A stretch of 64,000 nucleotides of DNA from Gammaproteobacteria bacterium (GTDB lineage: Bacteria > Pseudomonadota > Gammaproteobacteria > Eutrophobiales > Eutrophobiaceae): assembly GCA_963422205.2 (NCBI GenBank), contig CAXMWX010000001.1:416001-480000 (forward strand), given 5' to 3'. Of this stretch, positions 20,506 to 43,253 are shown one piece after another; within the stretch, counting starts at the first letter, position 1; each line of letters starts with the position of its first letter. The translations under genes were made by a program, and so were the position numbers. The notes under the pieces are model-generated. The model ran no database searches. It was not told where the DNA came from and saw nothing but the letters and a program-made list of their open reading frames with translations.

Positions 20506-20953
20506 CTACCGCTGCCGGCGTTAAGTTCAAGGGCGAGTTTTACCAGTTGCTCAACGATAGCCAGATCGCCCATCTATACACCTATCCCAAAACCCCAAAA
20601 ATGAATGCCGTGGTTGGTGAGCTTGCCGAACCATCTGCGAGCGTTCTAATCGCACCATGGTTGGTGAGCCTGTCGAACCATTCAAGAGCAGTCCTGCCTG
20701 TGCGTGTCCGCACGCAGACAGGTCGTGGACTTCCATGAACAGCTGCTGTTTGAAGACCTGCACCTGTTCAATGAAAAACTGGCCGACCTGCCTGTGCGTC
20801 CCTTCACGCAGACAGGCTGACTGGTCAAATATAACGGACTAAGACCACACAAGGGACTGGGATTACGAACACCAGTGCAGTACATTTGGTTGGTGAGCTT
20901 GTCGAACCCTATCCAGCACAACAAAAAGTGCAGTATGTGGTGGACTCATAACA
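20506..20953 (+). mobile_element. IS481-family-like element remnant 1 (3' half of transposase plus right end) interrupted by five micro-insertions
   Basis: After removing inserts it reads FKGEF..HLYTYPKTPKMNAICERxNRTIQEQFVDFHEQLLFEDLHLFNEKLADxLVKYNGLRPHKGLGLRTPVQY..KCSMWWTH (rve integrase C-terminal part) and ends ...CATAACA. Left boundary approximate. Confidence 0.8.
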
Positions 20954-20999: not shown

Positions 21000-21076
21000 T
21001 GCGGGGTGGAGCAGTCTGGCAGCTCGTCGGGCTCATAACCCGAAGGTCGCAGGTTCAAATCCTGCCCCCGCTACCA
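21000..21076 (+). tRNA. metY: tRNA-Met(CAT), initiator type (metY position)
   Basis: TGCGGGGTGGAGCAGTCTGGCAGCTCGTCGGGCTCATAACCCGAAGGTCGCAGGTTCAAATCCTGCCCCCGCTACCA; CAT anticodon, three G-C pairs in the anticodon stem, unpaired 1:72, encoded CCA. Confidence 0.97.
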
Positions 21077-21272
21077 TGTCTGCTGCCAGCATCCAGCCTG
21101 CTTCCATCCAACAAATTCACCGCCATAGCGCAAATAAGACGGCAACGACGTCCTTACAGGATAAGGACGGCCTGTCTTATAATAACAAGCAAAAGGGCGA
21201 TGGCTGGTAGCCGTTGCTGTCACATGCGTGAATTGCAAAGCAGCGCAGTCGAGAGAAGCACAACATGGCTAA

Positions 21273-24200
21273 TTGATCGTGAATGAGCAATACATTGAAG
21301 ATAAGCTGATCGGCAAGCTGTCTGATCTCAAATACACCCACCGCCCGGACATTCGCGACCGCGCTACGCTGGAGCGCAACTTCCGGCAAAAATTCGAGAC
21401 GCTGAATCGCATCACACTCACCGATGCCGAATTCAAACGACTCCTTGACGATATTGTCACGTCAGATGTCTATGATGCCGCTAACCGACTCAGAAACCGG
21501 CAAACCTTCATACGGGAAGACGGCACACCGCTCAATTATACCCTCGTCAATCTCACGGACTGGTGCAAAAACGATTTTGAGGTCATCAACCAGCTCCGCA
21601 TGAATACGGACTACAGCCATCATCGTTACGATGTGGAACTCCTTATCAACGGTATTCCCGTTGTCCAGATCGAGCTGAAGACGCTTGGCATCAGTCCGCG
21701 CCGCGCCATGGAACAGATCGTCGAATACAAAAACGATCCCGGCAATGGTTACACCCGAACGCTTTTGTGCTTTGTCCAACTGTTCATCGTCAGCAACCGC
21801 GACCACACCTTCTATTTTGCCAACAACAACCATGCTCACTTTACCTTCGATGCGGACGAGCGTTTCCTGCCCGTCTATGAGTTTGCGGACGAGGACAACA
21901 GGAAAATCACCCACCTCGATGACTTTGCCGCCCGCTTTCTTCAGAAGTGCGATCTTGGCCGGACCATCAGCCGCTACATGGTGCTCATCCAGAGCGAGCA
22001 AAAGCTCATGGTCATGCGGCCCTATCAGGTCTATGCCGTGCAGCAAATCGTCAAGTGCATCGAAGACGATGCGGGCAACGGCTACATCTGGCACACCACC
22101 GGCAGCGGCAAGACCTTAACCTCCTTCAAGGCCGCAACGCTGCTCAAGCAGAACGATGACATCCACAAATGCCTGTTCGTGGTTGACCGCAAAGACCTCG
22201 ACCGCCAGACCCGCGAGGAGTTCAACCGCTTTCAGGAAGGCTGCGTCGAAGAGAACACCAACACCGAAACGCTCGTCCGCCGGCTGTACTCTCGGGACTA
22301 TGCGGACAAGGTCATCGTCACCACCATCCAGAAGCTCGGCCTGGCGCTGGATAAAGACAGCAGGCGCAACCGGCAGCGCAAGCGCAACCACGAGCCGACT
22401 TACAAGCAACTGCTGGAGCCACTCAGCGACAAACGCCTGGTCTTCATCTTCGATGAATGCCACCGCTCGCAATTCGGCGAAAACCACAAAGCCATCAAGG
22501 CGTTTTTCCCCAAAGCCCAGCTATTTGGCTTCACCGGCACGCCGATATTTGAACAGAACGCGACCAGCACGCAGGTGACCGACGAGCTTGCCACCCTGCG
22601 TACCACCGAAGACCTGTTCCAGAAGCAACTGCACGCCTACACCATCACCCACGCCATCGAGGATAAGAACGTCCTGCGCTTTCATGTGGATTACTTCAAA
22701 CCCAATGAAGAAGACGGCAAGCACAACAAAGACGGCAACGACGACAGGCACGACAAAAAGCCACCGAAGCCCGAAGAGGGCATCGCCAAGCGCGCCGTCA
22801 TCGAAGCCATCCTGACCAAGCACGACACCGCCACTGTCGAACGCCGTTTTAACGCCATCCTCGCCACCGCCTCGATCAATGATGCCATCGCCTACTATGA
22901 TCTGTTCAAACAGATGCAAACTCGGCGACAGCAAGAAGACCCCGAGTTTCAGCCGCTGAACATCGCCTGCGTTTTCTCCCCGCCCGCCGAGGGCGACAAA
23001 GACGTGATCCAGATTCAGGAAGACCTGCCACACGAAAAACAGGACAACGCCGTTGAACCGGAAAAGAAAAAAGCCGCCCTGAAGGACATTCTGAACGACT
23101 ACAACGACCGCTATGGTGCGAACCACACGATCAGCGAATTTGACCTCTACTACCAGGACATCCAGAAACGCATCAAAGACCATCAATGGCCCAATGCCGA
23201 CTTCCCCCGGGCGCAGAAAATCGACATCACCATCGTTGTTGATATGCTGCTCACCGGCTTCGATTCCAAATACCTGAACACCCTGTACGTGGACAAGAAC
23301 CTTCAGCACCACGGCCTGATTCAGGCTTTCTCGCGCACCAATCGCGTGCTCAACGACACCAAGCCCAACGGCAACATCCTCGACTTTCGCGGGCAGCAAG
23401 CCCGCGTGGATGCCGCTATTGCGCTGTTCTCCGGCGAGAAAACCGCCGAGCAGGCGCGGGAAATCTGGCTGGTGGACAAGGCGCCCGTGGTCATCGGGAA
23501 GCTGGAGGCCGCCGTGCAGCAGCTCAGCGGTTTCATGAAATCCCAGGGCCTCGAAACCGCCCCCAAAGCTGTGCCAAACCTGAAAGGTGATGCCGCCCGC
23601 GCCGGGTTCATCAATCACTTCAAGGAAGTCCAGCGCCTGAAGACCCAGCTTGACCAGTACACAGACCTCACAGAAGACAACAAAGCCGCCATCGAGCGGG
23701 TGCTGCCGGATGAACAGCACCGCGGCTTCAAGGGTGCTTATCTCGACACGGCCCAACGATTGAAGGCGCAGCAGGGCAGGGGCAAGAGTCAAGGTGAGGG
23801 CAATGAGCCGGCGGATACCCGTAACACCACCCAACTGGATTTTGAATTCGTGCTCTTCGCCTCCGCCCTCATTGACTACGACTACATCATGCGCCTTATG
23901 ACCAGGTTCTCGGCCAACGCACCGGGCAAATCGAAAATGACCCATGAGCAGCTTATCGGCCTGATCAGCGCAGATGCCAAGTTTATGGACGAGCGCGAGG
24001 ACATCGCCGCCTACATCGCCACGCTCAAGCCCGGTGAGGGTCTCAGCGAAACCGCCATCCGCGAGGGATACACCCGCTTCAAGGCCGAGAAGAACGCCGC
24101 CGAACTTGCCGCCATCGCCGCAAGGCACGGCCTTGCAACCGAAGCCTTGCAGACCTTCGTGGATAGCATCCTTAGCCGCATGATCTTCGATGCCGAAAAG

Positions 24201-24341
24201 CTCGGCGATCTCTTCGCCCCGCTCGACCTCGGCTGGAAGGCAAGAGCCGACAAAGAACAGGCGCTGATGGCCGACCTCATCCCGCTGCTGAAAAAACGCA
24301 GCGCAGGCAGGGAGATTTCAGGGCTGACGGCCTATGAGTAA
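21273..24341 (+). CDS. hsdR: Type I restriction enzyme R subunit
   Basis: DVELLINGIPVVQIELK nuclease motif, IWHTTGSGKT, VVDRKDLD, DECHRS, GFTGTP, MLLTGFD, QAFSRTNR. Start may be GTG 21279. Confidence 0.95.
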   Translation: MIVNEQYIEDKLIGKLSDLKYTHRPDIRDRATLERNFRQKFETLNRITLTDAEFKRLLDDIVTSDVYDAANRLRNRQTFIREDGTPLNYTLVNLTDWCKNDFEVINQLRMNTDYSHHRYDVELLINGIPVVQIELKTLGISPRRAMEQIVEYKNDPGNGYTRTLLCFVQLFIVSNRDHTFYFANNNHAHFTFDADERFLPVYEFADEDNRKITHLDDFAARFLQKCDLGRTISRYMVLIQSEQKLMVMRPYQVYAVQQIVKCIEDDAGNGYIWHTTGSGKTLTSFKAATLLKQNDDIHKCLFVVDRKDLDRQTREEFNRFQEGCVEENTNTETLVRRLYSRDYADKVIVTTIQKLGLALDKDSRRNRQRKRNHEPTYKQLLEPLSDKRLVFIFDECHRSQFGENHKAIKAFFPKAQLFGFTGTPIFEQNATSTQVTDELATLRTTEDLFQKQLHAYTITHAIEDKNVLRFHVDYFKPNEEDGKHNKDGNDDRHDKKPPKPEEGIAKRAVIEAILTKHDTATVERRFNAILATASINDAIAYYDLFKQMQTRRQQEDPEFQPLNIACVFSPPAEGDKDVIQIQEDLPHEKQDNAVEPEKKKAALKDILNDYNDRYGANHTISEFDLYYQDIQKRIKDHQWPNADFPRAQKIDITIVVDMLLTGFDSKYLNTLYVDKNLQHHGLIQAFSRTNRVLNDTKPNGNILDFRGQQARVDAAIALFSGEKTAEQAREIWLVDKAPVVIGKLEAAVQQLSGFMKSQGLETAPKAVPNLKGDAARAGFINHFKEVQRLKTQLDQYTDLTEDNKAAIERVLPDEQHRGFKGAYLDTAQRLKAQQGRGKSQGEGNEPADTRNTTQLDFEFVLFASALIDYDYIMRLMTRFSANAPGKSKMTHEQLIGLISADAKFMDEREDIAAYIATLKPGEGLSETAIREGYTRFKAEKNAAELAAIAARHGLATEALQTFVDSILSRMIFDAEKLGDLFAPLDLGWKARADKEQALMADLIPLLKKRSAGREISGLTAYE

Positions 24342-24447
24342 CCCTCACACAACCTCACCCCCACGACGGGGAAACCCCGGGCAGAACAGGCGCACAGACC
24401 GGAAAATCCTGCCTATCTTCGTCATCATGTAAAACAGGTGCAGATTC

Positions 24448-25488
24448 ATGACCAAAAAGACCGACATCAACAAGGCGTTTTACACTGAAATCAGCGGCCT
24501 GCTGGCGCAGGCAAGAAGCCAGTCATACCGGGCGGTCAACATCATTATGGTGCAAACCTACTGGCAGGTCGGCAGGCGTATTGTCGAGCAGGAACAACAA
24601 GGTAGTAGCCGCGCAGGCTATGGCGAGCACCTCATCACCAGCCTTTCCAGACACCTGACCGACACCCTCGGCAAAGGCTTCTCGGAGGCCAATCTGAAAA
24701 ACATAAGGCAGTTTTATCTGGTATTCCCGGACTTTGACCAATTCGCTACGCACTGCGTAGCGAATCTCAGCTGGACCAATACCCGGACGATTATGCGCCT
24801 GGAAAACCCCGAAGAGAGAGCCTTTTACCTCAAAGAAGCCTCCTCGCAAAACTGGAGTTCACGGCAACTGCAACGCAATATCAAAAGCGACTACTACCAT
24901 CGCCTGCTATCCACCCAGCGCAACCCGGCCGCCCCGGAAACAGCGCCGCCCCAGGCGGCAGATTTTATTAAAGACCCGTACATCATGGAATTTTTAGGCG
25001 CTGCCGAGCAGATCACCAGCACGGAATCGGCGCTGGAACAAGCCCTCATTGATAACCTGCAACAGGTTTTGCTGGAACTCGGCAAGGGGTTTTCCTTTGT
25101 TGCCCGCCAGATGCGTATCAGCACCGAAACCACACATTTTTATATCGACCTGGTGTTTTACAATTATCTGCTCAAATGTTTTATCATCATTGATTTGAAA
25201 ACCCGCAAGCTCAGCCATGCCGACATCGGACAGATGGACATGTATGTCCGCATGTTTGATGCGCTAAAGCGAGGCACGGATGACAACCCGACCCTCGGCA
25301 TTATCCTCTGTACCGAAAAAGATGAGACCCTGGTGAAGTACTCGGTATTGCAGGAAAACCAGCAGCTATTTGCCTCCAAATACAAAACCCTGCTGCCCAG
25401 CGAACAGGAAATAGCCGACAGAATTGCCCGCCAGAGAACCCTGGCAGATACCCGCCAGCCATCCGGGCAATCGCGTTCAGGCCAATGA
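24448..25488 (+). CDS. YhcG/DUF1016 PD-(D/E)XK nuclease family protein
   Basis: YWQVGRRIVEQEQQG, LSWT, IKDPY..EFL, LLELGKGFSFVARQ, IDLVFYN, DIGQMDMYV, LFASKY. Confidence 0.9.
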   Translation: MTKKTDINKAFYTEISGLLAQARSQSYRAVNIIMVQTYWQVGRRIVEQEQQGSSRAGYGEHLITSLSRHLTDTLGKGFSEANLKNIRQFYLVFPDFDQFATHCVANLSWTNTRTIMRLENPEERAFYLKEASSQNWSSRQLQRNIKSDYYHRLLSTQRNPAAPETAPPQAADFIKDPYIMEFLGAAEQITSTESALEQALIDNLQQVLLELGKGFSFVARQMRISTETTHFYIDLVFYNYLLKCFIIIDLKTRKLSHADIGQMDMYVRMFDALKRGTDDNPTLGIILCTEKDETLVKYSVLQENQQLFASKYKTLLPSEQEIADRIARQRTLADTRQPSGQSRSGQ

Positions 25489-25515
25489 ATAAACCAGACA
25501 ACAATAGACAACCCC

Positions 25516-25937
25516 ATGAATCAAGATAAACCAGATGGCAATATCGTTTTGATAATTACCAACGCGCATTCAGCTTATTGCACGAAGCGATTGAATTACA
25601 AGATGACAAACCCCTGTCCGATCTGGAAAAAGAAGGCATTATTCAACGCTTTGAATACACTTGGGAACTGGCATGGAAAACCCTCAAGGATTATCTGGAA
25701 CATGAGGGTGTGGTGTTCGATAAAATCACCCCTAAAGCGGTTATCATAAAAGCCATTGAAGCAAAGGTTATCAGCAATCACGAACAGTGGATGAAAGCCC
25801 TGGACGACCGCAACAAGATGAGCCATGTTTATAACCACAGTGACTTTGAAAAAGTCATAGAAAATATTACCCGGCATTATCTGGCATTATTCGACACGCT
25901 CTATGAGAAATTGCTCAATGAAATCCTGCAACCATGA
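25516..25937 (+). CDS. HEPN toxin, HI0074/nucleotidyltransferase substrate-binding family; apparent 1-nt frameshift near 25532
   Basis: RWQYRFDNYQRA, GIIQRFEYTWELAWKTLKDYL, RNKMSHVY (RX4HXY); ATG 25516 (MNQDKP) is one base out of frame with the rest. Confidence 0.85.
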
Positions 25938-27652
25938 ACAACGACATTGACCACGGACTATCGCCCGGCGAATTACGCATCGTGCGGAACATCCTCAGCC
26001 CCTACCAACAACACATTGATAAAGTCGGTATTTTTGGCTCCAGGGCAAACGGCAACTATAAAGAATACTCCGATATTGATTTAGTGCTCTATGGCAACCT
26101 GGCCCAACAAGACCTGGCCCGCCTGCATACCCTGTTCGATGAAAGCCAATTAGGGGTAAGGGTGGACATCAATGCCTATCACCTGATTGCCTATCCCCCG
26201 CTGAAAAGACATATCGACAGCAAACACAAAACGCTGTTTACCGGCCAGGATTTACACCATGGGGGTGAGTTGCCTTCGGCTACGCTCAGGCAGCGGTCGG
26301 GGGGTGAGTCAGACAGTTCAACAGCGGTGGGTGAGCGGAGCCGAACCCCCGAATTGCGTTTCCCGGAATTTCGGGACAAGGGGGAGTGGGAGGTGAAACG
26401 AATTGATGAAATTGCCGATGTTGTTGCTTCCGGCGATTTAGATAAAGAATCTTTTTCACCACAAATGACGGATGAACATGTTTTTCCTATTTACTCCAAT
26501 TCTGTATCTAATGAAGGCTTGTACGGATACAATAACTATTCGAAATATCAGCCAAATAGCATCACAATTACCGCAAGGGGGACATTAGGAGTTGCCTTTG
26601 TAAGAAATACTGAATTTGTTGGTATTGGAAGACTTTTGGTTGTTTCTGAGTTGAGAAATATCGATCCAATATTCTTAAAAGAAAACTGGAATCAATATGC
26701 CAGAATTCCCCTTGAAAATGGCGGTATTCCGCAACTTACTGCGATAAAAACTAAAAGTGTTTCTTTGCTGTTTCCAGAGTTTGAAGAACAACAAAAAATC
26801 GCCGATTGCCTGTCTTCCCTTGACGACCTGATTGGCGCGCATATCGAAAAGCGCGAAGTGCTCAAAGCCCACAAGCGCGGCCTGATGCAACAGCTTTTTC
26901 CTCCGCCGCCTTCGACTACGCTTAAGAATCGGTCGGGTGGTGAGTCAGATAGTTCAACAACGGTGGGTGAGCCGCCTTCGGCTACGCTCAGGCAGCGGTC
27001 AGATAGTTCAACAGCGGTGGGTGAGCGGAGCCGAACCCCCGCATTGCGCTTCCCTGAATTTCGGGACAGTGGGGCGTGGGAGGAAAAAGAACTAGGAATG
27101 GTGAGTGATGTTCGGGATGGTACCCATGACTCCCCCAGATTTGTCAGTACAGGAATGCCACTCGTAACATCAAAAAATTTACTCGCTGACGGCTCATTAG
27201 ACCTCGGTAACGTAAATCTGATCTCAAATAAAGACTATGAGAAAATAAACAAGCGTTCAAACGTAAACGTAGGCGACATACTTTTCGGGATGATAGGAAC
27301 AATAGGAAATCCCGTTTTAGTTGAGTCTGATGAATTTGCAATAAAGAATGTCGCTCTAATCAAAGAAAAGAATGAGTTATTAAACGAATACCTTGTCTAT
27401 CTTTTAGACAGCCAATACATGTTTGATAAATTTCAGATGTTAGCTACTGGAAATACTCAGAAATTTATTGCTTTGGGAAAAATAAGAAGTCTAGTGGTGC
27501 CGCTACCAGTAAAAAAAGAACAACAAAAAATCGCTTCCTGCCTGTCATCTTTAGATGAGTTAATCACCGCCCAGTCGGAGAAAATCGCCCAACTGCAACA
27601 ACACAAAAAGGGCCTGCTGCAGCAACTTTTTCCTCGTGTTACAGGAGAATGA
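25934..27652 (+). CDS. hsdS: Fusion: N-terminal MNT nucleotidyltransferase antitoxin plus type I RM specificity subunit with two TRDs
   Basis: Residues 1-~105 contain FGSRANGNYKEYSDIDL (GSX10DXD); then PELRFPEF, TRD1, EQQKIADCLSSLDDLI..K..LMQQLFP, PALRFPEF, TRD2, EQQKIASCLSSLDELI..KKGLLQQLFP. Start overlaps the HEPN stop (ATGA). Confidence 0.9.
   Translation: MNNDIDHGLSPGELRIVRNILSPYQQHIDKVGIFGSRANGNYKEYSDIDLVLYGNLAQQDLARLHTLFDESQLGVRVDINAYHLIAYPPLKRHIDSKHKTLFTGQDLHHGGELPSATLRQRSGGESDSSTAVGERSRTPELRFPEFRDKGEWEVKRIDEIADVVASGDLDKESFSPQMTDEHVFPIYSNSVSNEGLYGYNNYSKYQPNSITITARGTLGVAFVRNTEFVGIGRLLVVSELRNIDPIFLKENWNQYARIPLENGGIPQLTAIKTKSVSLLFPEFEEQQKIADCLSSLDDLIGAHIEKREVLKAHKRGLMQQLFPPPPSTTLKNRSGGESDSSTTVGEPPSATLRQRSDSSTAVGERSRTPALRFPEFRDSGAWEEKELGMVSDVRDGTHDSPRFVSTGMPLVTSKNLLADGSLDLGNVNLISNKDYEKINKRSNVNVGDILFGMIGTIGNPVLVESDEFAIKNVALIKEKNELLNEYLVYLLDSQYMFDKFQMLATGNTQKFIALGKIRSLVVPLPVKKEQQKIASCLSSLDELITAQSEKIAQLQQHKKGLLQQLFPRVTGE
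26272..26348. repeat. REP-like inverted-repeat unit inside hsdS at the MNT/HsdS junction
   Basis: CCTTCGGCTACGCTCAGG ... GGTGAGCGGAGCCGAACC, with arms complementary at 13/14 positions. Confidence 0.75.
26908..27038. repeat. Tandem REP-like units inside the hsdS central linker
   Basis: CCTTCGACTACGCTTAAG...GGTGAGCC then CCTTCGGCTACGCTCAGG...GGTGAGCGGAGCCGAACC; direct repeat of 26272-26348. Confidence 0.75.
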
Positions 27653-29362
27653 AATATGAATAATACACTGAAACTCAACTCAAAAGATGAGTCATTAAGA
27701 GAAGTATTAAGCAATGGCAAGAAATACTTCGTGCCCAAATTTCAACGCGATTATTCATGGGAAAATGAGCATTGGGAAATCTTCTGGGAGGATATAGAAA
27801 ATGTATTGCAGGGAGAAAATGAATATCATTATATGGGTTACTTGGTGCTGCAAGAAGCCGAACAAAATCAATTCAAGATTATTGATGGACAGCAGAGACT
27901 CACAACCTTTTCTTTACTGGTGCTGGCCGCTATCAAGCGGCTGAAAGACGCAGCGCAGAATGAACAGGAACGCATGGATGAGTTACATAAGAATTTTATA
28001 GGGAGTAAGGATTTAATAAAACTTCAGATGACCAATAAGCTGAAATTAAACAGAAATAATGAGTATTACTTTAACGAGGCTGTCGCTGGCCATGATTTGC
28101 CTAAACGGGGAGTGAAGAAAACCGTGCATCTGATGAGAAAAGCGCTCGATTATTTCTATGGTGCTTTTGGGGATAAAACCGGGGAAAAGATCGGGGAAAT
28201 TATCGAAACGACCAGCCAGAATCTGCTTTTTACGACGATCTACATCGGCAGTGAACTCAATGCGTACAAGGTTTTTGAAACACTGAATGCGCGTGGTGTG
28301 CAGCTCTCTTCTGGGGATTTATTAAAAAATTATCTCTTCTCTGTTATTGATCAAAAGAACACGGCACCGGATGAAGTGATTGATCGATTGGATAAGAAAT
28401 GGGAGAAAATTGGCAGCGACATAGGTGATAATCATTACACGGATTACATTTTGTGTGACTGGAACAGCGCCCATTCACTCGTGAGAAAATCCGCGTTATT
28501 CAAAGAGATTCGAGATGAACTGGACACAACTGAAAAAGCGGATAATTACCTAAGCAGGTTAGCAAATAACAGTCAGCTTTATCATGCGCTGTTGAATCCT
28601 GATGATGAATTCTGGAAAGGTGATCAAGACTATCTTGCAATCAAAACCGATCTGCTTTTTTTGCGCCTGTTCAATATCAGGCAACCAGTCAGTCTGCTTT
28701 ATGCTGCCCACCTGAATACGCGGAACAGTTTCGCAAAAATATTACACTGGATTGCTTTGTTTTCGTTGCGATATAACGTGATATGCAGAGAACCCCCCAG
28801 TGAACAGGAAAGGCTTTACAACAAGATAAGTGTGTTGTTGTCAAACTCTACGGAGGGGACAAGTCAATTATTGCATAAAATCAAAAAAGAGATTGAAAGG
28901 CTCTGCCCTATGGATGAGGAGTTCAAGCAGAATTTTACGAATAAAACCATGCCGACCGAACAGTCCAACAAAAAAGCCCGTTATCTGCTCGCCAGATTGG
29001 CAGAGCAAGGCGGAGCGAATGCCATAGATGAGACCAGGCTGACCGTTGAGCATATTTTGCCTGCTCATCCAGAGAGTGAATGGATTGATGATTTTGGCGA
29101 TAACTGGCAGCTTTTCACGCAAAGAATCGGCAATATGGCGCTGGTTACCAAGAATCAAAATGAGCGGTTAGGGCAGCAGGCTTTTGCAGATAAAAAACAG
29201 ATATTATGCGCTTCTGAATACGCCATTAACGATGTTGCGGATTATGAAACATGGGATTCCCAGAGCGTTGAATCACGGCAGAATCGCTTGGCAGACATTG
29301 CCGTTCAGCTTTGGCGAATAGATTGATCACCGCCCAGTCGGAGAAAATAGCCCAACTGCAAC
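27563..29362. repeat. 37-bp direct repeats flanking the GmrSD-like gene
   Basis: ATCACCGCCCAGTCGGAGAAAAT(C/A)GCCCAACTGCAAC at 27563-27599 (inside the hsdS 3' end) and 29326-29362. Confidence 0.9.
27656..29326 (+). CDS. DUF262 + DUF1524 (GmrSD-like) nuclease
   Basis: VPKFQRDYSW, IIDGQQRLTT, FETLNARG (DUF262) and C-terminal TVEHILP, IGNMALV..N (HNH-like DUF1524); AT-rich. Confidence 0.88.
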   Translation: MNNTLKLNSKDESLREVLSNGKKYFVPKFQRDYSWENEHWEIFWEDIENVLQGENEYHYMGYLVLQEAEQNQFKIIDGQQRLTTFSLLVLAAIKRLKDAAQNEQERMDELHKNFIGSKDLIKLQMTNKLKLNRNNEYYFNEAVAGHDLPKRGVKKTVHLMRKALDYFYGAFGDKTGEKIGEIIETTSQNLLFTTIYIGSELNAYKVFETLNARGVQLSSGDLLKNYLFSVIDQKNTAPDEVIDRLDKKWEKIGSDIGDNHYTDYILCDWNSAHSLVRKSALFKEIRDELDTTEKADNYLSRLANNSQLYHALLNPDDEFWKGDQDYLAIKTDLLFLRLFNIRQPVSLLYAAHLNTRNSFAKILHWIALFSLRYNVICREPPSEQERLYNKISVLLSNSTEGTSQLLHKIKKEIERLCPMDEEFKQNFTNKTMPTEQSNKKARYLLARLAEQGGANAIDETRLTVEHILPAHPESEWIDDFGDNWQLFTQRIGNMALVTKNQNERLGQQAFADKKQILCASEYAINDVADYETWDSQSVESRQNRLADIAVQLWRID

Positions 29363-29528
29363 TGTGCCGTTCTGGGCCTGATGCTTATTTCATTGGGAAA
29401 TCCCTTCGGGCGATTTATCTACCTTATCCTATTGATAATAAAGATATTTTTTATTTCACTGGAAAATACTTTTGACACAGATTGCCACCGAAGAGGCAAG
29501 TAAAGAGAAAAACCCTGAACCCTGAACC

Positions 29529-31169
29529 ATGACCGACGAAGATCAAAAACAACTGGGTAGCACCCTCTGGAAGATTGCCGATGACCTGCGCGGGGCGATG
29601 AACGCCGATGACTTCCGCGACTACATGCTGTCCTTCCTCTTCCTGCGTTATCTCTCCGACAACTACGAAGCGGCGGCAAAGAAAGAACTCGGCAGAGACT
29701 ATCCCGAGACTGGCGGCGACAGCGCCGAGGTGCCCCTGGCGCTCTGGTATGCAGATAACCAGGACGATACCACAGCGTTTGAAAAACAGATGCGGCGTAA
29801 GGTGCATTACGTGATCAAGCCGGAGCACCTGTGGAGCAGCATCGCCAATCTGGCACGCATGCAGAACAGCGAGCTTCTGAACACACTGCAAGCGGGCTTT
29901 AAATACATCGAAGAGGAATCCTTTGAGAGCACGTTCTCCGGCTTGTTTTCGGAAATCAACCTCCACTCCGACAAGCTCGGCAAAACCTATGAAGACCGGA
30001 ACGCCAGGCTTTGCACTGTCATTCAAAAAATAGCCGAAGGATTGAACGCCTTCTCAACGGACATCGACACACTGGGCGATGCCTATGAATACCTGATCGG
30101 TCAGTTCGCCGCCGGGTCCGGCAAGAAGGCCGGCGAGTTCTATACGCCGCAGCAAATCTCCGACATCTTGTCTGCCATCGTTACGCTGGACAGCCAGGAA
30201 CCAAAAACCGGCACGAAAGAGCGGCTGACGACGGTCATGGATTTTGCCTGCGGTTCTGGCTCGCTGCTGCTCAACGTGCGTAAACGGATAAACAACGCAG
30301 GCGGCACTATCGGAAAAATTTTAGGCCAAGAGAAAAACATCACCACCTACAACCTGGCCCGAATGAACATGTTGTTGCACGGGGTGAAGGACACGGAGTT
30401 TGACGTCTTCCACGGCGACACGCTGGGCAACGAGTGGGACAGCCTGCGCGAGTTGAACCCGGCCAGGAAGCCAGCCTTTGACGCCGTTGTCGCCAACCCG
30501 CCGTTCAGCTATCGCTGGACGCCCGGCGAGGGCATGGGTGACGATGTGCGCTTCAAAAGTCATGGGTTGGCGCCCAAGTCCGCCGCCGATTTTGCGTTTC
30601 TGCTGCACGGTTTTCATTATCTGAAAGACGATGGGGTCATGGCCATCATTCTGCCGCACGGCGTGCTTTTCCGTGGCGGGGCAGAGGCGCGCATCCGCAC
30701 CAAATTGCTGCAAGATGGCCACATTGACACGGTCATCGGCCTGCCGGCCAATCTGTTCTACTCCACCGGCATCCCGGTGTGCATTCTGGTGTTGAAAAAA
30801 TGCAAAAAACCCGATGATGTGCTGTTTATCAATGCCAGCGAGCATTTTGAGAAGGGCAAACGCCAGAACCAGCTCAAACCCGAGCACATCGACAAGATCA
30901 TCGACACCTATCAGTATCGGAAAGAGGCCGACCGCTGGGCCCGCCGGGTGGAAATCGCCGAGCTCGAGAAGAATGACTACAACCTCAATATCTCGCGCTA
31001 TGTCAGCACGACCAGAGCTGAAGAGGAAATTGATTTAACCCAGACCCACCAGCGACTGCGCCACATCGAAAACCGGATGCACCAGGCGATGGACAAGCAC
31101 AATGCGTTTCTTGCCGAACTGGGGCTGCCCCGCCTGCCACTTTTGCCCGAAGCAGATAACATTGACTGA
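29529..31169 (+). CDS. hsdM: Type I restriction-modification methyltransferase subunit
   Basis: LWKIADDLRGAMNADDFRDY, GEFYTPQ, DFACGSGSLL, ANPPFS, LPHGVLFRGG, YNLNISRYV. Confidence 0.96.
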   Translation: MTDEDQKQLGSTLWKIADDLRGAMNADDFRDYMLSFLFLRYLSDNYEAAAKKELGRDYPETGGDSAEVPLALWYADNQDDTTAFEKQMRRKVHYVIKPEHLWSSIANLARMQNSELLNTLQAGFKYIEEESFESTFSGLFSEINLHSDKLGKTYEDRNARLCTVIQKIAEGLNAFSTDIDTLGDAYEYLIGQFAAGSGKKAGEFYTPQQISDILSAIVTLDSQEPKTGTKERLTTVMDFACGSGSLLLNVRKRINNAGGTIGKILGQEKNITTYNLARMNMLLHGVKDTEFDVFHGDTLGNEWDSLRELNPARKPAFDAVVANPPFSYRWTPGEGMGDDVRFKSHGLAPKSAADFAFLLHGFHYLKDDGVMAIILPHGVLFRGGAEARIRTKLLQDGHIDTVIGLPANLFYSTGIPVCILVLKKCKKPDDVLFINASEHFEKGKRQNQLKPEHIDKIIDTYQYRKEADRWARRVEIAELEKNDYNLNISRYVSTTRAEEEIDLTQTHQRLRHIENRMHQAMDKHNAFLAELGLPRLPLLPEADNID

Positions 31170-31578
31170 TTATGTGATCGATAGCCCCAGCCGCCGGCGT
31201 TAGGCGATTGTCCTGATATGAGCATGTGTGTGCCATGCTGCATCTGTGGTGGAGGGCGAGAGGGCAGCAGAGCGTGTCAACGATGCCCTGATTGAAACCA
31301 TCCTTGTGGCCTGGGCAGGCAATCATGGCCGTGCATGGTCGCTGTCATGATCTGCCGGGTGTCGGGACAGCGGCGCCGGCCATGTTGCCATGGCGCAAAC
31401 TCCCTGATACAATCTGCCGCCACTGTCAGGCACACCTGATAACAGCCGCTGATTATTCTGGTAGATTATTTTGGTGGATTATCAGGGTGTGCTTGTCGGC
31501 AGGAGGGGCGAATCGCTGCTTGAAAAAGCCAAGATACGCTGGTTGCCCGCCCCCGCTATCAGTATTTACGGTTTCGAT

Positions 31579-31602
31579 AGCCCCGCAGGATGGGGTTTTT
31601 TT
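31579..31602 (+). terminator. Intrinsic terminator just after the att-like copy (possibly the original tRNA terminator)
   Basis: AGCCCC-GCAGGAT-GGGGTT followed by a T-run. Confidence 0.6.
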
Positions 31603-31705
31603 ACGCCTGTTGTTCAGCCGGTGTGTGGTTGGACGCCAGAGGCCAGGCGGGTAACTCGGCTGAATCATGTTTATCTGGCGAAGGAGTGATATACATGCGG
31701 TATGA

Positions 31706-31730
31706 AAGTGGGCTTTGCGCCCATTTTTCG
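31706..31730 (+). promoter_or_regulatory. rimP leader hairpin
   Basis: AAGTGGGC-TTTGC-GCCCATTTTT, resembling the conserved hairpin upstream of rimP. Confidence 0.55.
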
Positions 31731-31778
31731 TTTCCGGTTCTTGCATCAGGTGAGTGGGCAGGCCGATGAGTAGACCGG

Positions 31779-32243
31779 ATGAATAGACAAGACATCGGGC
31801 TTGAGGCCTTGTTGCGCCCGGTTGTCGTCGGGCTGGGTTATGACTTGTGGGGGATAGAGCGGCTTGGCAGTCACGGTGCGCCCCTGGTTCGGTTGTATAT
31901 CGATGCAGCACAAGGCATCACGCTGGCTGATTGCGAGGCGGTCAGCCGCCAGGTCGCTGCGGTGCTGGATGTGCATGATCCGATCAAGGGGCGTTATACC
32001 CTGGAGGTGTCCTCGCCGGGCATGGATCGGCCCTTGTTCAGTCGGGCGCAACTGGCAGCTTATGTGGGCGAGCAGGTGCATTTGCGGCTGAATGAGAAAA
32101 TAAATCAGCGATGCAAGGTCAGCGGTCATCTGGAGCAGGTCAAGGCGGATTCTGTCATCGTCAGTATGGCTGATTTTGTCTGTGAAATTCCGCTGGATGC
32201 CATAAAAAAAGCCAATCTGGTATGCCAGACGCAGCGTCCATGA
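31779..32243 (+). CDS. rimP: Ribosome maturation factor RimP
   Basis: VRLYID...GITLADCEAVSRQV..LDVHDPI..YTLEVSSPGMDRPL. Confidence 0.96.
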   Translation: MNRQDIGLEALLRPVVVGLGYDLWGIERLGSHGAPLVRLYIDAAQGITLADCEAVSRQVAAVLDVHDPIKGRYTLEVSSPGMDRPLFSRAQLAAYVGEQVHLRLNEKINQRCKVSGHLEQVKADSVIVSMADFVCEIPLDAIKKANLVCQTQRP

Positions 32244-42200: not shown

Positions 42201-43253
42201 TGTATGTATAACTTCAGAAACACACTGCACTACTCAGAGAGAAAGCGAGAGCACTATCAGCATATAGGGTATCGAATAAAAGACTTTTATCGCACGGGCA
42301 GCCATGCAATAAGGGCGGACATGAATAATCAAATCGCCGCACAGCGTCCCTGCTTGCGTGCTGCGTGCAGGCAAGTCAGTGTGCTTAGATTCTGGGACAA
42401 GCATGGCCTGACCCGCCCTTGACCACAGTGGCAGTGGTTCGACAAGCTCACCCACCAGAGCCGCCGTACCCTGTATGCCTGGCGCAAAGCCTACCGCGAG
42501 TGGGGACTGTCTGGCTTGTGTCCGACCCCCAAAGCACCGAAGCGCACTCGCCGCTGACCACAAGCGGTTATCCAGCAGATACGCCAACGGCGCCAAGACC
42601 TGCCCAATCTGGATAAAGAGCAGTGTCAGGTACTGCTCAGATCCTGGTGTCAGGCCAGGGGATTGCCCTGTCCCAGTACTTCGACCATTGGCCGCCCTGT
42701 CTGTGCGGGTACGCAGACGGGCTGATTGCCGATACCCCCGACAAGAGGCGAATCTCACCCCCGGCCTTGAGCCCGAAGGGGAAAGCCAAAGCCTATCGAA
42801 GAACCCCCGTCACACGCCGCCCTAAAGGCTATCGCCCCAGCCAGATTGGCGAGTGTGTGGGACTGGACGCCATCGAGCGGCGTAGGCAGGTGGCCGGGGG
42901 GTATCTCCTCACCTCTATTGACGAAGCCAGTGGCTATGCCTTAGTCCTGGCGGTGCCGAAACGGAGCAGCCAAGCTGCCAGAGACTTCTTTGAGACGTGT
43001 TTCCGCTTGACCCCCTTCCCCATCCAGCAGGTGATTACCGACAGTGGCGTTACGTTCAAGGGCGCGTTTGACCAACGGCTCAATGATAGTCAGATCCTGC
43101 ATCTATACACCTATCCCAAAACCCCCAAAATGAATGCCGTGGCTGGTGAGCTTGCCGAACCATCTGTGAGCGTTCTAATCGCACCATGGTTGGTGAGCCT
43201 GCCGAACCATATCCAGTACAACAAAAAGGGCAATATAGTGGTGGGCGCATACA
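42201..43253 (+). mobile_element. IS481-family-like element remnant 2 (both ends present, transposase pseudogene)
   Basis: Starts TGTATG...CACACTGCAC and ends ...CATACA; fragments LRFWDKHGL, SRRTLYAWRK, PSTSTIGRLIAD, GECVGLDAIE, QQVITDSG.TFKG.F, HLYTYPKTPKMNA; 3' part highly similar to 20506-20953. Confidence 0.82.

Follow-up and report, generated by a model that had tools for sequence, protein, structure and literature searches.

How does palindromic repeat DNA come to be translated within the specificity subunit of a restriction enzyme, and what does it do there? The question is raised by a type I restriction-modification locus in a 64,000-nucleotide (nt) stretch of contig CAXMWX010000001.1 (positions 416,001 to 480,000, assembly GCA_963422205.2; hereafter the window) from a gammaproteobacterium of the family Eutrophobiaceae. 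Here an HsdS with two target recognition domains (TRDs) is joined in frame to an N-terminal MNT nucleotidyltransferase domain in a single open reading frame (ORF) coding for 572 amino acids (aa). Three repeat units lie in this ORF: one (J) at the MNT/HsdS junction, ahead of TRD1, and two (C1 and C2) at the central seam, between the conserved helix that follows TRD1 (CR1) and TRD2. The best explanation of the whole, which we consider probable, is that foreign repeats resembling repetitive extragenic palindromic (REP) sequences became fixed in frame at both HsdS seams, where they would be tolerated passengers.

Pfam places the MNT domain (PF18765/PF01909) at residues 15-103 of the ORF product and two copies of Methylase_S (PF01420) behind it. 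Each of these two TRDs is followed by a conserved helix modelled with a predicted local distance difference test score (pLDDT) above 90, as in an HsdS, and the structure 1YF2 was matched by sequence to HsdS. The complete units, J and C2, share a left arm, CCTTCGGCTACGCTCAGG, and a right arm, GGTGAGCGGAGCCGAACC, and agree with each other at 34 of 36 positions in the left half and 36 of 37 in the right half. A 12-nt block is present in J and C1 and missing from C2, while the 10 nt ahead of the left arm of J (26263-26272) match the tail of C1. Codon phase is 0 at the start of all three units, their lengths are multiples of three, and the motif P-x-LRFPEF comes after each array, at residues 141 and 371. 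An earlier, sequence-only reading of the window had described in-frame inverted-repeat units ahead of each such motif, and for J, C1 and C2 this description holds. In the whole window the right-arm pattern is matched twice against 0.07 matches expected, and the left-arm pattern three times against 0.02, as many being reached in none of 100 shuffles in either case. For J and C2, folding gives an imperfect hairpin whose stem has 13 bp, at -20.1 kcal/mol (z -2.1) and -19.6 kcal/mol (z -2.4) respectively; an energy as good was reached in 3 of 200 shuffles. C1 forms no hairpin on folding (z +0.98). The same reading had counted about two tandem units in the centre of the gene; as C2 is complete and C1 truncated and non-folding, this count resolves into one truncated plus one complete unit. 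Tandem Repeats Finder, run on 25900-27700 at score 30, returned no rows. The sequence GGTGAG occurs three times in each full unit. The AT-rich TRDs do lie between GC-rich units, as had been stated: the GC fraction is 0.66 in J and 0.61 across C1-C2, against 0.41 in each half consisting of a TRD and its conserved helix and 0.54 in the genome.

A direct repeat of 91 nt with 90% identity flanks TRD1 and CR1 (26308-26398 and 26998-27088). The arms of J and C2 are identical at 70 of 73 positions and the adjoining conserved coding DNA at 43 of 51, a difference that speaks for copying of units within the gene. The latter value falls inside the range of 34-45 of 51 seen at six homologous loci, which leaves recent gene conversion reaching past the units unsupported. 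The arrangement was also compared with Logan contigs from two runs of one study, possibly the source of the assembly itself. In each run a single contig spans the junction (25900-26344) with 0 differences and, so far as contigs tell, the junction is no assembly artefact. Contigs across 25900-27700 likewise show 0 differences and break at a shared 37-nt repeat. The 713-nt middle contig has a mean depth of 15.2 in run X1, where its neighbours have 12.6 and 8.35, and of 414 in run X2, where they have 649 and 549; these are whole-contig means, and the two runs disagree. No copy-number variant was seen in the contigs of the two runs, in which rare variants would be invisible.

Alignment with the closest HsdS homologues, which had been proposed as a check, shows the units to be inserts. 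Among the best 120 of 7,839 homologues, a linker pattern of the form 'helix end ... [LY]RFxEF' matched 97, and the other 23, the query included, were left out. From LFP to LRFPEF the linker between CR1 and TRD2 is exactly 8 aa long in 88 of the 97, typically xEGETxPx, and 13-48 aa in the remaining nine. In the 572-aa protein it measures 47 aa, C1 and C2 standing in place of the 8-aa linker. N-terminal tails ahead of the first LRFPEF are mostly 3-21 residues long in the homologues. Relatives of TRD1 reach 78% identity, and those of TRD2 reach 74% and have the canonical 8-aa linker.

Where such inserts might have come from was asked first of the host genome (2.99 Mb, 98% complete). Outside hsdS it contains no copy of the J unit or of its 18-nt left arm with up to two mismatches, and the unit was not found at the genome's other S-type loci. 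A search of the order's remaining 125 genomes gave no match to the unit at E<=0.01; in the full set of 126, completeness is at least 90% for 81. The linker peptide (residues 318-378), compared with 5.8 billion proteins of 314-1001 aa, matched the query alone, and the middle of the unit, AGTTCAACARCGGTGGGTGAGC, has 0 exact matches among metagenome contigs. The arms, in contrast to the unit middle, are matched in distant genomes. A 26-nt degenerate left-arm pattern recovered 19 loci, where by our own estimate about one was expected by chance, from metagenome-assembled genomes (MAGs) of Bacteroidia, Cytophagales, Spirochaetota/Treponema, Nitrosomonadales, Thiothrix and Anaerolineae. For the majority the position is outside any long ORF or at the end of an ORF; one match inside a 573-aa ORF (L018) is probably due to chance. 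In five of these MAGs the 18-mer of the left arm, with at most one mismatch, has 101, 62, 18, 47 and 18 copies, its reversed control having 0 in all of them. One Nitrosomonadales MAG gives 54 BLAST matches to the J unit, many of them 96-100% identical over 26-28 nt, and a Cytophagales locus matches J over 81 nt, both arms included, at 76% identity. At one locus (L008) tandem left arms are closed by a single right arm, a layout like that of C1-C2. As an observation in its own right, the arm CCTTCGRCTNCGCTCAGG is dispersed in many copies, frequently arrayed in tandem, through MAGs of several phyla (L008, L023 and L012; genomes G126-G130), with Bacteroidia, Cytophagales, Nitrosomonadales and Thiothrix among them.

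These results support the view that the units are REP-like and belong to a family foreign to the genome that now carries them. The derivation from REPs put forward earlier stands in this sense, the arms belonging to a dispersed palindromic class with 18-101 copies in each of five genomes. Alternatively, the segments could be a native low-complexity linker which resembles dispersed repeats by chance, and the uniqueness of the complete unit to this gene would agree with that. We find this very improbable in view of the dozens of highly similar copies in the Nitrosomonadales MAG, the excess of left-arm matches over chance and the 8-aa linker that nearly all homologues have in the same place.

The right arm had also been likened to family A (GGTGAGCTTGTCGAACC), which has 30 copies in the host genome. 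The likeness persists at the level of a class, since family A and the right arm of the unit have the frame TGAGC-N(2-4)-GYCGAA in common, but it does not extend to any copy of the HsdS unit elsewhere in the genome. In addition, the left arms of the units in another hsdS locus (L026, see below) have a core, TTCGACAAGCTCA, that is exactly reverse-complementary to that of family A. To judge by the sequences, family A is the host genome's own member of the broad class TGAGC-N(2-4)-GYCGAA. Its copies in the window sit within repeated transposase-like stretches, where they flank a piece reading ERSNRT in another frame, and appear to be mini-insertions into an insertion sequence (IS) family.

Similar inserts were found in other HsdS proteins. 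P0004 (447 aa, encoded by L026) has YPSASSVPGKSGGERSRTPN as its central linker, and the corresponding DNA, CCTTCGGCAAGCTCAGT...GGTGAGCGTAGTCGAACC-CCC, has the same end point and frame as in the 572-aa ORF, the palindrome ending in ...CGAACC-CCC-x-[LY]RFPEF in both. The N-terminal tail of P0004 is a second palindrome of the class, placed directly after the protein's own ATG. In P0020 both conserved helices are followed by a repeat of another kind (PPLEGWQAQPDGVV-type peptide), with 48 aa in the central seam and 28 aa as a C-terminal tail. HsdS seams are evidently recurrent sites of such repeat DNA. Identity to the TRD2 of the 572-aa protein is 61% for P0004 and 64% for P0020, and reaches 74% for the unit-free P0007. 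Since the three insert-bearing proteins are not nearest TRD2 relatives, common descent of their inserts is not established; for P0004, descent of the insert along with a TRD2 cassette finds no support in the same comparison.

The question then is whether the two seams of the 572-aa ORF were filled separately. Two independent insertions, by an active element targeting each seam and with no copying within the gene, would suit the finding that three HsdS of one TRD2 type (the 572-aa protein, P0004 and P0020) bear three different inserts in the same seam, as well as the occupation of both seams by units in L026. At one of the handful of loci compared, L030, canonical seam DNA (GTGAGGGCGAAACC, coding for EGET) weakly resembles the right arm GTGAGCGGAGCCGAACC at window positions 27020-27040, a likeness that may be fortuitous or may point to a preferred target. 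Separate insertion is nevertheless an improbable account of the units. The homology of J to the central array continues for 10 nt past the left arm into the tail of C1, which argues for copying or deletion of a piece of an array, and neither a mobilising enzyme nor a target duplication was identified. A broader proposal, which we regard as unlikely, would tie TTCGRC...GCTCA repeats specifically to hsdS seams. Canonical seam DNA, by its likeness to a repeat half-site, would be their landing pad; units placed 5' of each TRD would then provide homology by which TRD cassettes move within and between unrelated hsdS genes and hosts, and could weld neighbouring defence genes such as MNT onto HsdS by a flexible tether, with PrrC-like coupling as the outcome. 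Preferred landing at the seams, were it to help TRD shuffling or gene fusion, would be a further means by which type I specificities diversify; the present data do not establish this.

We next consider whether the inserts could affect target recognition. An AlphaFold2 model based on a 140-row alignment (mean pLDDT 82.4, predicted TM score 0.71) shows both TRDs and helices 283-321 and 527-565 at pLDDT above 90, the two spacer helices being equal at 39 residues each. The central insert is modelled as coil, with block means of pLDDT of 58, 45 and 47 over residues 331-360, and so is the junction unit, at pLDDT 30-42. A structure model, likewise suggested beforehand as a check, therefore predicts at low confidence that both inserts loop out as coil outside the helices. 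How long the conserved helices are determines the half-site spacing of type I enzymes, and the TAEL repeats of EcoR124I/II sit within the helix and alter both its length and the gap in the target, according to the available part of PMC3874165. In the 572-aa protein the units begin past the end of the helix, at residue 321, and TAEL is found in the translation of neither CR1 nor CR2. Because the units come after the helix end and the two helices are equal, no change in the target gap is expected, and the units would leave the methylation target as it was.

The idea of an expandable spacer, one of the roles that the sequence-only reading had offered for the array, is not supported by this model. 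In another form of the explanation, the units are direct repeats that drive excision of TRD1 or exchange of TRDs and so give alternative specificities. The unit lengths are all multiples of three, and a deletion between the 91-nt repeats around TRD1 and CR1 would give an in-frame half-subunit composed of MNT, a unit, TRD2 and CR2. Dimers of half HsdS subunits have activity, and hybrid specificities arise through crossing-over within conserved DNA (PMC3874165, same part). We still judge a spacer or recombination role unlikely, as the inserts lie past the helix that determines spacing, the genome has no partner hsdS with a unit, and no variant appears in the contigs of the two runs, where rare ones would go unseen. 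Nor does the locus have the make-up of an hsdS shufflon: a Pfam scan of six of its ORFs revealed no recombinase, and the genome's other S-type loci are without the unit.

The junction unit raises the further question of how the MNT domain came to be attached. MNT homologues are mostly 100-120 aa long and align to query residues 5-108. The two nearest stand-alone relatives from the same order end, directly before the stop, in ...ILFTHHDLL (109 aa, 68% identical) and ...ILFTRKDIMINRQE (115 aa, 60% identical), and the fusion reads ...TLFTGQDLHH-GGELPSATL... at the corresponding place, so that the repeat DNA starts within one or two codons of the native MNT stop. As no protein of 314-1001 aa has a close match to this MNT, the fusion is a singleton. 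One unit, J, forms the junction of this recent event. Among the best 150 MNT representatives, where matches longer than 300 aa plus three shorter ones were scanned for Methylase_S, the domain was present in five of the six matches above 300 aa. These five (P0157, P0256, P0259, P0243 and P0235; 317-581 aa) are independent MNT-Methylase_S fusions from other lineages, and the recurring architecture may merit a study of its own. Their junctions are direct and without palindromic units, and none is close to the 572-aa ORF. The suggestion that the palindromic element created the fusion can be kept only in part. The junction does consist of a unit placed at the native end of MNT; on the other side, J retains the tail of a preceding unit, L026 has its ATG before its unit, and five fusions arose free of repeats. 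Given the preceding-unit tail ahead of J and the position of the ATG in L026, a deletion into an older N-terminal array is the simpler course of events.

The in-frame TTG at 26270 could serve as a separate HsdS start: the duplex of GGGGGTG, a sequence resembling a Shine-Dalgarno (SD) site, with the anti-SD is worth -9.7 kcal/mol, compared with -7.85 kcal/mol at the 5th percentile of in-frame positions in the ORF, although the spacing is short. Upstream, the HepT-like gene reads MNQDKP from its ATG at 25516 and then continues in another frame (RWQYRFDNYQRAF...), with the break after codon 6. Intact relatives of 141 and 142 aa have their N-terminus in one frame, and the sole in-frame start that remains is a TTG at 25578 (119 aa). 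The break may reflect either a genuine mutation or an error in base calling; as it stands, it weakens the case that the fusion serves a working toxin-antitoxin pair. Both domains of a HepT/MNT pair are present, with MNT lacking a stop of its own and the partner broken in frame.

These features matter for a functional explanation, in which the repeat linker tethers MNT to the type I complex as a subunit and so couples a HepT-type RNase to the state of that complex, in the manner of PrrC and EcoprrI. In its favour are the repeated origin of MNT-HsdS fusions and an hsdR whose EcoR124_C C-terminus is of the type IC family, EcoprrI being reported, in the available part of PMC3874165, to keep a latent RNase in a type IC complex. 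The accessible part of PMC4621449 also says that HEPN toxins associate tightly with restriction-modification systems. Even so, we give the tether little credit, because the HepT-like gene is broken, the fusion is a singleton among proteins of 314-1001 aa, the SD-like site and in-frame TTG could yield a separate HsdS, and the closest stand-alone MNT pairs of relatives are not adjacent to hsdS.

The features discussed and their surroundings are collected in the table below. The locus starts after a tRNA-Met gene (21000-21076), and rimP and nusA follow hsdM. This island of about 10 kb (window 21000-31800) is a GC mosaic, with 0.56 in hsdR and hsdM and 0.41-0.42 in the HepT-like gene, the TRDs and the GmrSD gene. 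No copy of tRNA-Met of at least 12 nt, as an att-type repeat would provide, was found downstream of it.

Table. Features of the MNT-HsdS ORF and of the DNA around it; positions are those of the window.
Feature	Position	Strand	Description
Junction unit J	26273-26347	+	75 nt, 25 codons, PSATLRQRSGGESDSSTAVGERSRT; at the MNT/HsdS junction
Central unit C1	26909-26974	+	66 nt, 22 codons, PSTTLKNRSGGESDSSTTVGEP; degenerate left arm, without right arm
Central unit C2	26975-27037	+	63 nt, 21 codons, PSATLRQRSDSSTAVGERSRT; both arms; abuts C1
MNT-HsdS ORF	25934-27652	+	572 aa; ORF list and Pfam
MNT domain	25934-26262	+	Native C-terminus at about aa 109-110, ...TLFTGQDLHH
Possible HsdS start TTG (L113)	26270-26272	+	SD-like GGGGGTG 3 nt upstream
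TRD1 and conserved helix CR1 (aa 283-321)	26348-26902	+	Pfam; AlphaFold2, pLDDT >90
TRD2 and conserved helix CR2 (aa 527-565)	27038-27652	+	Pfam; AlphaFold2
hsdR	21273-24341	+	EcoR124_C-type C-terminus; Pfam
DUF1016/YhcG PD-(D/E)xK nuclease gene	24448-25488	+	Embedded in hsd locus; Pfam
HepT-like NTase_sub_bind partner gene	25516-25937	+	Frame broken after codon 6; Pfam
GmrSD-type restriction endonuclease gene	27656-29326	+	Embedded in hsd locus; Pfam
hsdM	29529-31169	+	Pfam
Family A elements	20616-20679, 20892-20908, 42436-42452, 43145-43208		About 17-24 nt, GGTGAGCTTGTCGAACC and variants

Taken together, the sequence comparisons and the model suggest a scenario in which the units derive from a dispersed, REP-like palindromic repeat with arms of the class TTCGRC-N2-4-GCTCA, copies of which became fixed in frame in two structurally equivalent seams, each ahead of a TRD. 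Belonging to a family foreign to the present genome, they most likely inserted into hsdS while it was in an earlier host, and would have come here together with the gene. In-frame slippage or unequal recombination may then have added a 66-nt unit and produced the difference in the 12-nt block between J and C1 on the one hand and C2 on the other. A deletion from the end of mnt into the N-terminal unit array would have removed both the MNT stop and the hsdS start, giving rise to the 572-aa ORF. Its HsdS product would be either the fusion or a protein begun at the internal TTG. The translated units presumably form disordered loops outside the coiled coil that sets the spacing, as they do in the model, and for this reason they would be tolerated passengers that leave the methylation target unchanged.

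Several points weigh against this account of foreign passenger repeats. The complete unit has no known source: the arms are common to dispersed repeats, the unit middle finds no exact match among metagenome contigs, and a source can be named for the arms only. Common descent of the inserts in different HsdS is unproven, and independent landings on a tolerant seam are equally possible. The passenger status would follow from a predicted model together with analogy, and residues 81-110 of MNT are likewise modelled with low confidence, which makes the surroundings of the junction a weak part of the model. Finally, no linked mobilising enzyme was established in a survey of Y1 transposases in five repeat-rich and 14 control genomes. 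Y1_Tnp genes are present in all five repeat-rich genomes and also in six of the 14 controls, and the arm motif lies within about 1.5 kb of a Y1 gene at one of six inspected loci; a tie between the arm class and REP-associated tyrosine transposases (RAYTs) was not demonstrated.

If the passenger account is right, the N-terminal tail of HsdS and the linker between CR1 and TRD2 can accommodate tens of residues encoded by selfish DNA, and a defence gene can bring such DNA along into a host where the repeat family is absent. It also calls for caution in annotation: repeat arrays may be what lies behind an overlong HsdS or an apparent MNT-HsdS fusion, and repeats between TRDs are better not taken for rulers of spacing unless they are inside the helices.

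How do these units compare with known systems? The closest parallel is provided by intragenic REPs, which, in the available part of Di Nocera et al. 2013 (PMC3733652), are described as lying in frame, singly or in clusters (the latter coding for 43-82 aa), and are argued to be neutral, being placed in flexible linkers or termini with function kept. That part also covers the Rickettsia palindromic elements (RPEs). The likeness of the units to both is that of short palindromic repeats in frame within ORFs: J and C2 form stem-loops of the kind seen in intragenic REPs, C1 being non-folding, and, as with intragenic REPs and RPEs, the units stand out as insertions relative to homologues (47 against 8 aa in the central linker, with units of 75, 66 and 63 nt). 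They differ from intragenic REPs in that the family is absent from the host outside hsdS: instead of many copies in the same genome there are copies in hsdS only, and the arms are dispersed in other phyla. Neither a GTAG/CGTC tag in the defining position nor a link to RAYTs was demonstrated; CTAC/GTAG is present inside the left arm, its end position as a GTAG tag being unestablished. The target genes that the available part of PMC3733652 names do not include hsdS, and four arm-derived strings are absent from its text, the family sequences being in figures and additional files outside the search. Among the papers listed by a literature search, none dealt, by title or abstract, with palindromic repeats at the seams of hsdS, and another search, for four arm motif strings, returned nothing relevant.

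Among restriction systems, the TAEL repeats of EcoR124I/II are alike in being short in-frame repeats between the TRDs of a type IC-like HsdS; those repeats lie inside the dimerisation helix, whereas the units here are located past its end, in predicted coil. EcoprrI-PrrC (PMC3874165) shares with the present locus a toxin-type RNase module in a type I locus and, as an idea, its physical coupling to the enzyme; here, however, the link would be made by an antitoxin domain fused to HsdS, and the toxin gene has a broken frame. Truncated and circularly permuted HsdS (the delta-N and delta-C variants of EcoDXXI and the EcoAI variant cp380), described in the same part of that paper, show the termini of HsdS to be equivalent to its central seam and, like it, tolerant, and half-subunits to be functional. 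These variants are engineered or selected deletions, and none such was observed in the contigs covering the 572-aa ORF. In-frame repeats within genes are thus already known, and the set at the hsdS seams is a further case of that kind.

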